This document shows positions 3,562 through 29,315 of a DNA stretch of 64,000 nucleotides, piece by piece. The notes under the pieces are model-generated. The model was given only the letters and a program-made list of their open reading frames with translations. It had not been told where the DNA came from and did no database searches. The position numbers and the translations under genes are program-made. This stretch comes from Shigella phage ESh27: the sequence record ON528737. One strand, written 5' to 3'. Each line of letters opens with the position of its first letter. Position 1 is the stretch's first letter.

Positions 3562-6500
3562 TTAGAATTTAAAATATTTACTAATTTTGCGAGCAATTTT
3601 AGTAAAGAGAGGCGTTTTCAATTCTTTAATTTCTTCGCTCATTTCCTGAATGGCCTTAATTAAAAGCGCGTTCACTGCGGAGTTTGAAATTGTTAAAATT
3701 TCTTCTGGGTTATCCTGAGATCCGACACTAGAAGTGCTAACAGCTTCCGGTAATACTTCTTGCAAATCCTGTGCGATAATACCAATCTCATGGCCGATAA
3801 CTTCGCGGTCAGAAAGAGATTTAACTTTATCATAGGTTTTAACTTTGAGTTTATTTACCTTATCCACCGCATTCTCTTCGTAGTCTTCGACATTAATTTT
3901 CAGACGACGGTCAGAACGAATATAAACGTCGTTACAATATACAGCAGCACCAGCAGTAAAATCACCGTTAGATGCAAATGCATAATCACTCCCACCCACA
4001 TGCAATACAACATGAGGATTACCACCGCCAGCATGAACACCCATCGCCGCAAGGTGCTGTTCGCCCCAATGAGTAGCTTTCCAAATGTTATATGCTTGAT
4101 TTCGTGAGTCCTGACAGTCTACCAACAATCCAGCCGGACGGTCTCGCCAGTCTACCCATGCACCACCGGAAATATTACCACGGATAAGAGCGTATTCACT
4201 ATTATATGGAACACGCTCTCCCGCTAGAATCATTGCACCCTGGAAGTGATGACTAAATGAACCACCATGATTATTGTGAATATGTAAAATACCCTCATCT
4301 GTAGCCCAGATAACAGCCTTTTCTGCATCGCTATCATCTCTAAACCAGATATGTCGTGCACCAGTTGAGTTTTTGATGGTTATTCCGTTAGGTCCATGCA
4401 CGGTCAAAGCACCAGCAACATCAAACATCAAACTGTTATCTGTCCTGCGTTCAGCATAGAAGTGATAACCTTTTGAATCGCCGACTTCCAATACTGCCGC
4501 GCGACCAACTTCTGAATTTCCCCAATTGTTGATAGAGAATCGTTCAGAGCTATTATTCATCTGATTTAGGTATAATGTACCATCAGTGAATGTTTCGCCA
4601 AAGAAACGAGTTTTAATTGCACCTGTCGCTAAAGTACGTTCAGTGGAAAAATGAGCGCCTTGACTATCTTCTAACTGGATGATGTTATCACGACCATTAT
4701 TACTATCACCCCAATGGTTAAATTTAAAATAATCTCGTGATCCTAAACGTCCCGGGTCAAAAGTCATCACGCCTTTCATGTTAATATCACCGCTGACCAG
4801 AACGTTATCTGGGAAGTTAACAGTACCGTCTTGATTAAAACGAGACGCATGGCCTTGTGAACCATCTTCTTTCAGATGATGAATAACGAATGTACCTGAT
4901 TCAATTTCGGTACCTAAAGACCAAACGGATTTACCGTTTAAAAACTTCTGTTTAACAATAGGATAATATTTGCTTACAGCGTCATCATCGATTTCCTGGA
5001 AAATAGGAGCCGCTTGAACATATTGAATGTCATAACCGCCGGCACCCGCTCCATGACCAACAAATTTAATATAGCCATTCGCAGCAAACGTATTGTAACT
5101 TGATTGTAAATCTGGAATAGTAACTTTACCGGTATCTAAAGCCATACTAAACGGGCGAAGTGGACCGATATCACCATGTTTACCTTCACCATAAGCAGTT
5201 GGAATAATATGAAGACTGCCTTCTGAACGTCTAAAAATGGCTCCATAATCTGCGTTCCAAATACGAAGAGCATTCACTGCTCCAGATGAAATTTCACCTG
5301 TTGTGTGAACTCCTCTATCTCCAGCAGTAACACCAGATGATTCAAATGAACCATTAACGTTCATTTCTACTTCGCCAGTAGTAAGTCTTTGAATATAGCT
5401 CATCCAGCTAGTTGCATCAGAAATTTCCATAATGTTTTTACGGATACCTCCGCTTGGATCAACAAACGTATTACCCCAAACTTTAATATCCATATTATCA
5501 ACCGAGCTGTATCCTGTTGTGTTGCCTCTAAACATTAGTGTAGAAGAATTATTTCTACCATCTATATTAACAGAACCACCAATAACGTCAATATTACCAG
5601 GAGTAACTAACAAACCGCCATGAGTATTAATGTTTGTGGTACCCTTGCCGCGGAAATAATGATGATAGTTACCGCCTTGATAATATCCTAAAAGAGTTTG
5701 ACCATCGCCGTATGCGTTATTATCATGGTAAGTAACAACAGTGGCCAAAGCATAGTTTTCTGTCGGTGGCGTTGTCATAAGAAGCCCATCTGGAGAATAA
5801 CCCATAACCATTTTTCTAAGGCTTTGTGTTTCCGCAGGACCGTAAATGAAAGTTTTTGTTCCGTTGTTTACTGTATGGAAATATCCATCCTGATGCCACT
5901 TAAATCCGGTATCATTATCACCAAGAACAATTGAGGCCGTTCCTAATTCAGAATATCCTTTTGGACCACCTGGAAGACCTACAGCGATAGAATGACCGGC
6001 TTTCAATCCACCGGACCAGGTAAACGACCAAAGATAAGTGTCTAAGCCATCTCCGGAATACCAGGTTATTCCGTCATTAACATTAACTTCGTGGAAAATA
6101 CCTGCTCCTACAGCATTTCGCATAACACGGAGGTGGTTAATAGCCGTTTCGCTTTCTGCCAATGGAGTGTTATTTGATAATGAATAGATGTCATAATCGC
6201 CTGTCTTCTTCCCATTTGTAATAACTTTGTCGGTCAGAATTTGTGGAGACGAAATAGATTTCCATGCTGATACTTCAGGTGAAGTAAATAGTCCACTGCC
6301 CGAAAATGCATAGGTGCTTTCATCACCAGCGGCGTAGTCTTGAACCCTGATATTAAGTACTTGTGTAGTTAAACCATCATTAGCCGGGGCATAAATGATT
6401 CCACGTTCGCGACTATTGTTATCGAAAAAACGAACATGTGCTGTACCTGAACTTTTTGTAATAAGTTCACCGCCTTCAGTCATAATCTGCCCAGCGGCAA

Positions 6501-25263: not shown

Positions 25264-26349
<1,086 letters not shown>

Positions 26350-26350
<1 letters not shown>

Positions 26351-26753: not shown

Positions 26754-27029
26754 ATGTTCCCTAAATATTCTGAAATTGTAAAGGTCGTTTTTAGTCAGAT
26801 TATCGCAAATCATTTCTTTGATAAGCTGGATACTGCTACCGAGCTTAAGGTCCACTCTGAACTACTCTACGTTTTGAATACACTAGTGCCTGACCAAGTG
26901 GATTCTGTGTCTGTTACGTTGTTGCCCAGCTCGGCTCATGTGATTGTTGTGTTTGGTCTTGATGCTGAACTAGTAATTCAGTGTGAAGTTGATTTCGATT
27001 CACAAGAAATTAAATGTTTTGCAATTTAA
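26754..27029 (+). CDS. hypothetical protein (91 aa)
   Basis: ORF track; cd.x-like slot. Confidence 0.4.
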   Translation: MFPKYSEIVKVVFSQIIANHFFDKLDTATELKVHSELLYVLNTLVPDQVDSVSVTLLPSSAHVIVVFGLDAELVIQCEVDFDSQEIKCFAI

Positions 27030-27059
27030 GTTTACAACACCGTAGAGTTGTGATATGAT
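27030..27059 (+). promoter_or_regulatory. early sigma70-type promoter
   Basis: -35 GTTTAC, 18-nt spacer, -10 TATGAT; GAGGAAA SD downstream. Confidence 0.5.
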
Positions 27060-27086
27060 GACTCTACCAACAATGAGGAAATTGAA

Positions 27087-27323
27087 ATGCTAAGTGAAAA
27101 TCCAATTACAGTACACGAATTTCAGATTAAAGTAAAAGAATTTGCTCAAGCACTCATCAATAAAGTGTCTGAACGTTTCCAGGATGCAACATTACGAGTT
27201 ATTCAAGAATCTCCACGTTCTTTTCTCATAATCGTTAATCCTAAAGATGGTGACCAAATTACTAATCTTAAATTAGGCAGTGATGGTCTTGTTGAAGCAA
27301 CTCGAGTATATGGAACACTATAA
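27087..27323 (+). CDS. hypothetical protein (78 aa)
   Basis: ORF track; early promoter 27030-27059 and GAGGAAA SD upstream. Confidence 0.45.
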   Translation: MLSENPITVHEFQIKVKEFAQALINKVSERFQDATLRVIQESPRSFLIIVNPKDGDQITNLKLGSDGLVEATRVYGTL

Positions 27324-27443
27324 TGAGAGCTATCTCATTACTATCGAGAATGGTCATAAATCTGAGCACTACCAACTTAACCTGTCTAATCCGGTTAAAG
27401 GTATTGTTGAATCAGAATCTGTTTATATCTCCTAAGGATTGTT

Positions 27444-28436
27444 ATGTTACCTGTCGTCGGAAAACTTATTTCTCCAAAAGAACTGGCTGAGATTATTCCT
27501 TTGTCGGAAGCTTACGCATCACAAGTGGCTTCTCATCGCGAACAAGTTAATTCGATTATGAATGGTGAAGACCCACGCAAACTTATTGTTGTAGGTCCTT
27601 GTTCAATTCATGACCCTATTGCTGCTGTTGAATACGGCAAACGTCTGGCTGAACTTCAAACTCGTCTTCCTAATGTTCTGTTAGTGATGCGCGTTTATTT
27701 TGAAAAGCCTCGAACTACCGTAGGTTGGAAAGGTCTTGTAAATGATCCATATCTTGACGGAAGTTTTGATATGAACCACGGTCTTATAGTTGCACGAACA
27801 TTGTGTCGTAAACTTCTACGTATGGGACTTCCATTAGCAACTGAAGTATTAGACCCATTCACGATTAAGTATCTTTCTGGTATTTTCTCATGGGTTGCTA
27901 TTGGCGCCCGTACGACTGAAAGTCAGACACATCGTGAAATTGCTTCAGGTCTACCGATGTGCGTAGGCTTTAAGAACGCAACCAATGGTTCTATTAAAGT
28001 AGCTACAGACGCGATGTATAGTGCCGCCTGGCCTCATCGGTATATGGGTATGGACGTCGATGGTACTGTAGGCATTGTTGAAGCTGAAGGTAATCAGAAT
28101 ACGCATATCGTATTGCGTGGCGGGACCAACGGCCCGAACTATCATTCTTCTGATATTCAAGAAGCTTCTAACAAAGCAAGGGCAGTAGGTCTGAATCATT
28201 ATGTAATGGTTGACTGTAGCCATGCAAACGCTGATGGGCATTATAGCAATCAAATTGGTATTGGTAAAAATTTAGCAGCTAATGATTTGGTCAAAGGAAT
28301 TATGATAGAATCGTTCCTACATGAAGGAAATCAAAAAATTTCTGATAATATGTCCTATGGCGTTTCCGTTACCGATGCGTGCATCAGTTGGGAACAAACT
28401 AAAGAGCTGTTAACTTATATTAATAAGGTTCAATAA
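27444..28436 (+). CDS. 3-deoxy-D-arabino-heptulosonate-7-phosphate (DAHP) synthase, type I-alpha (AroG/F/H-like)
   Basis: 330 aa; GPCSIHDP, YFEKPRTTVGWKGL, GARTTESQ, DCSHAN, ESFLHEGNQ, TDACI motifs colinear with E. coli AroG; AAGGA SD 5 nt upstream. Confidence 0.9.
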   Translation: MLPVVGKLISPKELAEIIPLSEAYASQVASHREQVNSIMNGEDPRKLIVVGPCSIHDPIAAVEYGKRLAELQTRLPNVLLVMRVYFEKPRTTVGWKGLVNDPYLDGSFDMNHGLIVARTLCRKLLRMGLPLATEVLDPFTIKYLSGIFSWVAIGARTTESQTHREIASGLPMCVGFKNATNGSIKVATDAMYSAAWPHRYMGMDVDGTVGIVEAEGNQNTHIVLRGGTNGPNYHSSDIQEASNKARAVGLNHYVMVDCSHANADGHYSNQIGIGKNLAANDLVKGIMIESFLHEGNQKISDNMSYGVSVTDACISWEQTKELLTYINKVQ

Positions 28437-29017
28437 TGAAAGCTAGCACATACCTTCAGATTGCATATCTGATTTCTCAAGAATCAAAATGTTGTTCATG
28501 GAAAGTAGGTGCCGTCATTGAAAAAGATGGACGTATCATTTCTACTGGGTATAACGGTAGCCCGGCAGGTGGTATAAACTGTTGTGACCATGCTACTGAA
28601 CAAGGTTGGTTGAAGAATAAACCAAGCCCGGTCATCGTTGCTGGGCATAAAGAAGGCACTACAGCATTTGGACGGGCCGATAATTTTGTTTTGGCTAAAG
28701 AACATCGGGCTGCTCATAGTGCATGGTCTGCTAATAACGAAATCCATGCGGAACTGAACGCAATTTTGTTTGCAGCTCGTAAAGGTAATTCTATTGAAGG
28801 TGCTACGTTATATACGACGCTTTCTCCGTGTCCTGATTGCACTAAAGCTATTACGCAGTCAGGTATTAAAAAGGTTGTATATGCAGAATTATATGACCGA
28901 TCTCCTGAAAATTGGGCAGACATTCTAAAACAAGCTGGTATTGAAGTAATTCAGTACTCTCGTAATAATCTTCGTTCTCTGAATTGGGAACAAATCCGAA
29001 ACTTTTGTGGTGAATAA
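28436..29017 (+). CDS. cd: dCMP deaminase
   Basis: 193 aa (T4 Cd 193 aa); zinc motifs HAE and PCxxC (SPCPDCTKAI); follows accessory block. Confidence 0.92.
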   Translation: MKASTYLQIAYLISQESKCCSWKVGAVIEKDGRIISTGYNGSPAGGINCCDHATEQGWLKNKPSPVIVAGHKEGTTAFGRADNFVLAKEHRAAHSAWSANNEIHAELNAILFAARKGNSIEGATLYTTLSPCPDCTKAITQSGIKKVVYAELYDRSPENWADILKQAGIEVIQYSRNNLRSLNWEQIRNFCGE

Positions 29018-29018
29018 T

Positions 29019-29315
29019 ATGATTTTAACTGAACAAGAAACTGTGGTTCTTCGTGAACGTATTAAAACTATTCTGTCTGTAGGCGTTCATTGTGTTGTAT
29101 TTGAAAAGGCTAACGGTGATGTTCGTACGATGTTTGCTTCGCGCGACGAACTTGAAGTCAAATACGAAAATAACAATCCGGCAACAGAAGTTCGTTATGA
29201 ACCTCGTGAATCAGTTCGAGCATTCGATACCAAGTTAGGTCAGTGGCGTTCTTTCCGCCTTGATAAAGTAATTTCGGTTGATGGTACTCCGGTGGAACGT
29301 TTGCTTCTTATGTAA
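29019..29315 (+). CDS. hypothetical protein (98 aa)
   Basis: ATG 29019 just after cd stop; track shows a GTG-extended start at 29007. Confidence 0.45.
   Translation: MILTEQETVVLRERIKTILSVGVHCVVFEKANGDVRTMFASRDELEVKYENNNPATEVRYEPRESVRAFDTKLGQWRSFRLDKVISVDGTPVERLLLM

Follow-up and report, generated by a model that had tools for sequence, protein, structure and literature searches.

Shigella phage ESh27, from which we analysed a stretch of 64,000 nucleotides (sequence record ON528737; hereafter the window), encodes a type I-alpha DAHP (3-deoxy-7-phosphoheptulonate) synthase in which all catalytic residues are kept. Our preferred reading, to which we assign a probability of roughly 65%, is that this 330-aa protein is an early-expressed, feedback-insensitive and catalytically active enzyme of an old phage clade. 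The gene itself is already known; new are the prediction of feedback insensitivity, its support from convergence in a second phage lineage, and the insertion history of the gene. An earlier reading made from the letters alone (the sequence-only reading) had proposed a complete 330-aa open reading frame (ORF) with its own Shine-Dalgarno sequence, and both parts held, with the ATG at 27444 and AAGGA 5 nt upstream of it (Table 1).

The family assignment draws on profiles, structures and individual residues. The Pfam check that the sequence-only reading had suggested, against PF00793 (DAHP_synth_1), returned E = 5.2e-75 and 252 bits (cut-off 25.5), far above chance. From NCBIfam, the aroFGH equivalog TIGR00034 was matched with 427.7 bits (cut-off 173) and PRK12755 with 455 bits (cut-off 343). 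The isozyme-specific models for AroG (NF006723, 363 bits against a cut-off of 568) and AroH (NF009396, 386 bits against a cut-off of 463) gave scores below their thresholds. Residues 1-330 of the protein, its full length, aligned with positions 8-337 of the 341 in the phrog_5045 profile (E = 3.2e-182), and the nearest solved structure by sequence was E. coli AroF (PDB 6AGM, E = 5e-105). Its AlphaFold model (predicted local distance difference test score, pLDDT, 92.7) superposed on solved type I-alpha DAHP synthase (DAH7PS) structures (NmeDAH7PS, AroG) with a template modelling (TM) score of 0.96 and a root-mean-square deviation of 1.3 Å, and it contains the (beta/alpha)8 barrel together with the beta6a/6b hairpin of the I-alpha type (strands 198-203 and 209-214). 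Identity to the E. coli isozymes is about 51% for AroF, 47% for AroG and 43% for AroH. The phage enzyme has the fold, the I-alpha-specific hairpin, the metal ligands and the residues for phosphoenolpyruvate (PEP) and erythrose-4-phosphate (E4P) in common with all three isozymes, but it belongs to a separate, phage-only clade and stays under the AroG- and AroH-specific cut-offs.

At the level of single residues, the proposed metal ligands Cys, His, Glu and Asp were found as C53, H260, E289 and D311, which occupy the columns of AroG C61, H268, E302 and D326. The AroG-like motifs quoted in the sequence-only reading are all there (VVGPCSIHDP, KPRTTVGWKGL, GARTTESQ, DCSHAN, ESFLHEGNQ, TDACI). The PEP- and E4P-binding residues R92, K97, R99, T100, A164, R165, K186 and R234 (AroG numbering) are identical at eight of eight positions in the window protein and throughout the phage clade. 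Taken with the metal ligands, 12 of 12 catalytic and substrate residues (AroG numbering) were invariant across 25 phage-clade and 98 cellular sequences. The matches to PF00793, TIGR00034 and 6AGM and the conserved metal, PEP and E4P residues together bear out the type I-alpha assignment, and the phage protein is predicted to catalyse the conversion of PEP and E4P to DAHP, the opening and flux-controlling step of the shikimate route to aromatic amino acids.

The regulatory site gave a different picture. An alignment of allosteric residues with AroG and AroF, also suggested at the outset, showed that the inhibitor-contact residues are replaced whereas the catalytic ones are kept. We scanned every AroG position for residues that were nearly fixed within each group but different between the phage and cellular groups, and the output consisted of only seven positions (P150I, Q151K, D155G, L156I, S180P, F209Y and T223A in AroG numbering), all of them at or near the allosteric (inhibitor) pocket. 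The phage residue at 150, 151, 156, 180, 209 or 223 occurred in none of the 98 cellular sequences. In the window protein itself, the inhibitor-binding Pro150, Gln151, Ser180 and Phe209 are replaced by I141, K142, P171 and Y200. Compared with AroF, AroG and AroH, the phage enzyme is without the first ~9 residues, and the places of P150, Q151, D155, L156, S180, F209 and T223 are taken by I, K, G, I, P, Y and A.

Phage proteins have 8-12 residues before the AroG P19 column and cellular proteins 16-53, two disjoint ranges, and in-frame stops upstream bar a longer N-terminus in four genera. The sequence-only reading had put both termini at about 10 aa shorter than those of AroG. This was roughly right: the N-terminus is 8-9 residues shorter than in AroG or AroF, and at the C-terminus the difference is about 5 residues from AroG and about 9 from AroF. 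Within the N-terminal segment that is absent from the phage proteins, Asp6 and Asp7 of AroG reportedly contact bound Phe, an observation attributed to Shumilin et al. in 2002. The idea that shortened termini might alter feedback regulation, at first a speculation, was strongly reinforced by finding the truncation across the clade and the inhibitor-contacting residues replaced.

The positions that distinguish the phage clade are well known from feedback-resistant laboratory enzymes. The inhibitor is held by its main chain through Q151 and S180 in AroG and through Q152 and S181 in AroF, the D155 salt bridge stabilises the allosteric site, and feedback-resistant forms of AroG include P150L, S180F, L175D, L179A, F209A/S and V221A (PMC9529685). 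Tyr-insensitive AroF arises through replacement of Pro148 or Gln152 or deletion of Ile11 (PMC5791370), and Q166K of yeast ARO4 is a classic feedback-resistant allele (PMC5879953; PMC7513737). Offsets worked out in two independent ways from the coordinates of PDB alignments placed ARO4 Q166 in the Q151 column, so the phage Gln-to-Lys change is the same substitution as ARO4 Q166K. The phage clade is naturally changed at the positions altered in AroG P150L, S180F and F209A/S, in AroF P148L and the Q152 variants, and in ARO4 Q166K, and its truncation removes the region preceding the Ile11 position of AroF. The laboratory variants are single changes, whereas the phage clade combines seven fixed substitutions with a truncation. 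Because the regulatory pocket is rebuilt and the N-terminal segment removed, the phage enzyme most likely does not respond to Phe, Tyr or Trp.

Decay is not what the rebuilt pocket shows. Within the phage clade, column entropy averaged 0.27 over 18 pocket positions and 0.95 over the whole protein (P = 0.0003 by resampling), and the new residues may either lock the active conformation or accommodate a new ligand. The position that determines Tyr/Phe selectivity carries an AroF-like Gly (G202). As a separate observation, 6-8 of the 117 cellular I-alpha DAHP synthases in a second comparison set have a non-canonical pocket of their own (D146Q, P150A, Q151A, S180G, F209H), and this minority may form a differently regulated subfamily.

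A second phage lineage bears on the same question. The unrelated Aeromonas phage HJ05 (79 kb) and three metagenomic relatives encode a DAHP synthase that is 38% identical to the window protein and lies in a different context. Like the window enzyme, it is of the I-alpha type with an intact catalytic site and is altered at positions 150, 151, 155, 156, 180 and 209 (A150, H/S151, P155, F156, P180 and V209). It differs in having 36 residues before the P19 column, in its replacement residues and in its genome context. The 117 nearest cellular relatives of this lineage mostly keep the canonical residues, with P150 in 107, Q151 in 105, S180 in 109 and F209 in 110. Each of the two lineages, T4-like and HJ05, was monophyletic in 100 of 100 bootstraps, and they were joined in only 7 of 100. 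The HJ05 lineage is an independent acquisition in which the same regulatory positions changed, including an identical S180P. Taking the two lineages together, we are inclined to think that phage DAHP synthases are naturally deregulated and that two independent lineages convergently dismantled the same pocket, S180P included, with the T4-like clade carrying a change of the ARO4 Q166K type. In its own record, the HJ05 gene (3899-5062) goes by no more than "hypothetical protein"; its product has a long, His-rich N-terminus.

The phage clade is old and phage-specific and appears to be descended from an AroF-like cellular enzyme. In a search of 5.8 billion proteins, the 24 nearest relatives of the window protein were phage proteins or lay on phage-sized contigs (55-98% identity, 319-343 aa), whereas all cellular homologs were at most 55% identical (341-388 aa). 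The phage proteins were monophyletic in 200 of 200 neighbour-joining bootstraps that included 98 cellular sequences and E. coli AroF, AroG and AroH, with the group containing AroF as nearest neighbours. The gene occupies the same slot between pseT and cd in Mosigvirus, the genus of ESh27 (Straboviridae, Tevenvirinae), and in Marfavirus, Bragavirus, Winklervirus and Kanagawavirus. For the last four, in that order, identity to the window copy is 68, 58, 67 and 77% for DAHP synthase, 67, 45, 57 and 59% for pseT, and 78, 64, 69 and 80% for cd, and the divergence of the DAHP synthases among genera tracks that of pseT and cd. The comparison of base composition with a neighbouring gene that the sequence-only reading had suggested gave a third-position GC content of 0.29 for the DAHP synthase gene and 0.27 for cd. 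Pairs within Mosigvirus differ by at most 10 substitutions each, a count at which a comparison of nonsynonymous and synonymous rates (dN/dS) is uninformative. We also noted DAHP synthase genes of 35-48% identity on contigs labelled as phage (Acinetobacter phage MD-2021a; human faecal "Bacteriophage sp."), one record set of which holds two copies (aroF_1, aroF_2); these short contigs may come from contaminating bacteria and not from phages.

Early transcription of the DAHP synthase gene is probable. A promoter-like site in the gap between cd.3 and cd.2 agrees at almost every base with the sequence that T4 and RB69 have where the T4 annotation places early promoter Pe133295, between the same two genes. 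The number of promoter-like sites in our scan was not above that in shuffled sequences (13 against 15.1), and we used only this T4-homologous site. No + strand terminator was found by a terminator scan between the promoter-like site and cd, and 26900-28600, searched against Rfam with a permissive threshold, held no RNA element, and so no riboswitch or attenuator in the leader. Because the upstream promoter is homologous to an annotated early promoter of T4, early co-transcription of cd.2, the DAHP synthase gene and cd, with this site as its likely start, appears probable. The stop codon of the DAHP synthase gene overlaps the start of cd (TAATG, 28434-28438).

In a host with plentiful aromatic amino acids, AroF, AroG and AroH are repressed and inhibited, and once infection has shut off the host, their renewal would presumably cease. 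A phage enzyme blind to feedback would then restore the entry of PEP and E4P into the shikimate pathway, and the downstream enzymes of the host would provide chorismate, the precursor of aromatic amino acids and possibly of para-aminobenzoate and folate, and of quinones. Least certain in this proposal is which of the products derived from chorismate matters. The adjacency to cd hints at a nucleotide or folate link and is suggestive rather than evidence for one.

Several points weigh against our interpretation. That the downstream enzymes of the host make use of extra DAHP during infection is an assumption. The gene is dispensable in principle, given that T4 is without it and that the site is empty in RB69 and about 10 other Mosigvirus records. 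The high conservation of the pocket could mean that something is still bound there and not just that the pocket is filled, and the AroF-like G202 may preserve a residual response to Tyr. In the second cellular set (n = 117), some enzymes also have a variant pocket, with Gln replaced by Ala in 8 and Ser by Gly in 6. All of our trees are neighbour-joining trees, and the cellular comparison sets comprise the ~100 nearest database hits. Finally, we found no enzymology, expression data or phage-mutant phenotype for the phage enzyme in the searchable literature.

Two alternatives accept an active DAHP synthase and differ from our reading in its regulation. The phage protein could be an additional isozyme of the host type that is still inhibited by tyrosine like AroF, as its nearest solved structure, its tree neighbours, the Gly at the selectivity position and the conservation of its pocket residues would allow. 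We think this unlikely, however, since both residues that hold the inhibitor main chain are replaced (Q151 by K and S180 by P), Pro150 is replaced and the N-terminal segment is gone; each such change abolishes inhibition by itself in the E. coli or yeast enzymes, and K151 or P180 was seen in 0 of 98 cellular homologs. Alternatively, the pocket could have been retuned to another effector, for example one relevant to the phage, which would make the enzyme re-regulated rather than deregulated. The low entropy of the pocket relative to the whole protein speaks for this, as does the near-fixation of the seven replacements in a clade whose members are down to about 55-60% identity. But HJ05 carries different residues at the same positions (A, H/S, P, F and V), which resembles the loss of an old site; the N-terminal segment that helps to close the site is absent, and packing that locks the active conformation would explain the conservation just as well. 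We regard retuning as similarly improbable.

Two further explanations would remove the metabolic role or the age of the gene. A different function, either as a synthase resembling 3-deoxy-D-manno-octulosonate 8-phosphate (KDO8P) synthase or of another sugar acid, or as a catalytically dead protein with another role, might be entertained given that PF00793 also spans KDO8P synthases and given the wording of the phiC120 genome paper (PMC8022965). It is very improbable in view of the 428 bits scored on the aroFGH equivalog, the return of only DAHP synthase models from NCBIfam at E <= 0.001, the invariance of every E4P, PEP and metal residue, and the superposition of the fold on type I-alpha DAH7PS at a TM score of 0.96. 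On residue conservation, and with DAH7PS enzymes as the nearest structures by both sequence and fold, a KDO8P synthase or pseudo-enzyme was rejected as a candidate. That the gene is a recent and selectively neutral passenger from a bacterial host has in its favour the plastic region and the close relatives that are without it. This explanation we consider the least probable of all: no cellular protein exceeds 55% identity, the phage clade is monophyletic and occupies the same slot in at least five genera, the base composition is fully phage-like, and the catalytic site is conserved over deep divergence. At the level of sequence, recent capture from a host was rejected on the first of these points together with phage-only monophyly and phage-like base composition.

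The sequence pattern turns a vague label (auxiliary metabolic gene, function unknown) into a sharp question, namely whether Phe, Tyr and Trp leave the enzyme unaffected. Should that be so, the enzyme would exemplify a general principle of viral metabolic genes, in which the rate-limiting step is taken and stripped of its feedback control, and evolution would have reached the same residues that metabolic engineers mutate. The enzyme would then also offer a natural, multiply substituted and feedback-resistant DAHP synthase scaffold for the production of aromatic compounds, and Mosigvirus phages whose site is naturally filled (the window type) or empty (RB69) would be ready pairs for valuing extra shikimate flux in a T4-like phage.

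Whether the gene had been described before was left open by the sequence-only reading, and the answer is yes: upwards of 200 phage records carry it as an annotated gene, a PHROG family is devoted to it, and at least three papers mention it. A tblastn search found homologs in 212 phage records, where the usual annotation is DAHP synthase, AroF or AroG. As DNA, the gene matches 121 phage records at 99-100% identity, including phiC120, PhAPEC2, Shf125875 and O157 typing phages, and the identical protein is annotated in about 140 Mosigvirus records, among them phiC120, O157 typing phage 3 and LF82-series phages (100% identity). The family phrog_5045, or "phospho-2-dehydro-3-deoxyheptonate aldolase" in GenBank, of Mosigvirus, Kanagawavirus, Marfavirus, Winklervirus and Bragavirus is the same gene as that in the window. 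The phiC120 genome paper lists the DAHP synthase domain in wording that mentions lipopolysaccharide (PMC8022965), a preprint lists the phage enzyme as a suggested auxiliary metabolic gene (bioRxiv 10.1101/2020.01.19.911818), and a Klebsiella-phage paper treats the Kanagawavirus copy as an amino-acid auxiliary metabolic gene (PMC11845039); in these published mentions it is a candidate of unknown function. None of the papers reports further shikimate-pathway genes, and no scan of the rest of the genome was made. Prior description takes away the novelty of the gene and leaves its function untouched. The gene codes for a host-type metabolic enzyme in a virulent phage and lies outside replication and structural functions. 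The proposal that it is an auxiliary metabolic gene is upheld because of the Mosigvirus genome context, the cellular homologs in the shikimate pathway and the published listing in the preprint.

The junctions of the DAHP synthase block show that it was inserted. Relative to RB69, the type Mosigvirus, the extra DNA spans 27339-28432, and the two pieces of the alignment overlap by 19 nt. A 19-nt imperfect direct repeat with 16 of 19 bases matching flanks this 1.1-kb block (Table 1). Among pairs of TAATGA sites in the window, only 1 of 1128 is as similar downstream as the junction copies. A 41-aa ORF in the leader of the gene matched phrog_15876 (E = 2e-31) and, weakly, the cd.2 family phrog_1504 (positions 44-76 of 77, E = 2e-5). 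It is 50% identical to the cd.2 C-terminus of Kanagawavirus Entb_45 and 49% to that of Marfavirus PWKp18, compared with 26% to the cd.2 proteins of the window itself, RB69 and T4. On the simplest reading, a phage resembling Kanagawavirus or Marfavirus would have passed the gene to the Mosigvirus lineage by recombination. This donor would have had a cd.2-DAHP synthase-cd arrangement, and a block consisting of the 3' half of its cd.2, the DAHP synthase gene and the start of cd would have recombined into an RB69-like empty site, with a homologous right crossover within cd and an illegitimate left crossover just inside the cd start of the recipient. Phages of the RB69 type would then either never have received the block or have lost it through recombination between the repeats. 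The orphan cd start on the left opens a 55-aa ORF (27323-27490, MRAIS...) with no family match, and the 41-aa ORF is annotated as a gene in some GenBank records (PNJ-6, JK45).

Table 1. Features of the DAHP synthase locus, with positions in the window.
Feature	Position	Strand	Description or basis
DAHP synthase (3-deoxy-7-phosphoheptulonate synthase), type I-alpha, 330 aa	27444..28436	+	ATG start; profile, structure and residue matches
Shine-Dalgarno AAGGA	27434-27438	+	5 nt ahead of the DAHP synthase ATG; read from sequence
Early-promoter-like site: GTTTACA, 17-nt spacer, TATGAT, extended -10 TG	27031..27059	+	Consensus scan; cd.3/cd.2 gap
Left-junction scar, ATAATGAGAGCTATCTCAT	27320..27338	+	Orphan, degenerate copy of the cd.2-stop/cd-start overlap and first cd codons
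Right repeat copy, ATAATGAAAGCTAGCACAT	28433..28451	+	DAHP synthase stop overlapping the functional cd start
41-aa ORF in DAHP synthase leader, fragment of a foreign cd.2 (3' half) brought in with the DAHP synthase block	27310..27435	+	PHROG matches; identity to cd.2 C-termini
cd.2 homolog, 78 aa, DUF7320, phrog_1504; resident gene upstream of the insertion	27087..27323	+	Pfam and PHROG
cd (dCMP deaminase), translationally coupled downstream neighbour	28436..29017	+	PF00383, E = 5e-26

The order of genes around the insertion is pseT (25451-26350), cd.4, an ORF resembling RB69 ORF227, cd.3, cd.2, a 120-nt stretch, the DAHP synthase gene, cd, 31.1 and gp31. T4 has only cd.5 to cd.1 between pseT and cd, in agreement with the earlier description of this slot as one that holds small cd.x ORFs in T4. 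In RB69, cd.2 directly abuts cd with no gene between them, and this empty site, together with the junction scar that marks the insertion, substantiates the proposed acquisition into a plastic region. Among close records, about 139 have a filled site, against RB69 and about 11 others with an empty one. The cd.2 of the window is 96% identical to that of RB69 and 65% to that of T4, and its cd is 90% identical to RB69 cd and 73% to T4 cd.

Homing endonuclease genes occupy the same slot in some relatives, including Proteus phage PM2 (1606-2322, between pseT and the DAHP synthase gene) and, as SegD, Escherichia phage PNJ-9; such enzymes might move neighbouring DNA, the DAHP synthase block for example, between co-infecting phages. 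Shigella phage JK45 (NC_054940.1) is classified in RefSeq as Tequatrovirus jaykay, yet at the protein level its DAHP synthase and flanks share 98.5% identity with the Mosigvirus copy, so that either its taxonomy is doubtful or its genome is a mosaic. The cd.3 homolog of the window (26754-27029) is only 68% identical to RB69 cd.3, with neighbours at 93-100%, which marks local mosaicism immediately upstream of the early promoter. Downstream of cd, the gp31.1 homolog (29007-29315, + strand) contains a WYL_2/Sm-like SH3 domain (Pfam, E = 4e-9); its GTG start overlaps the end of cd, and the RefSeq ortholog in phiC120 is annotated with a later start.

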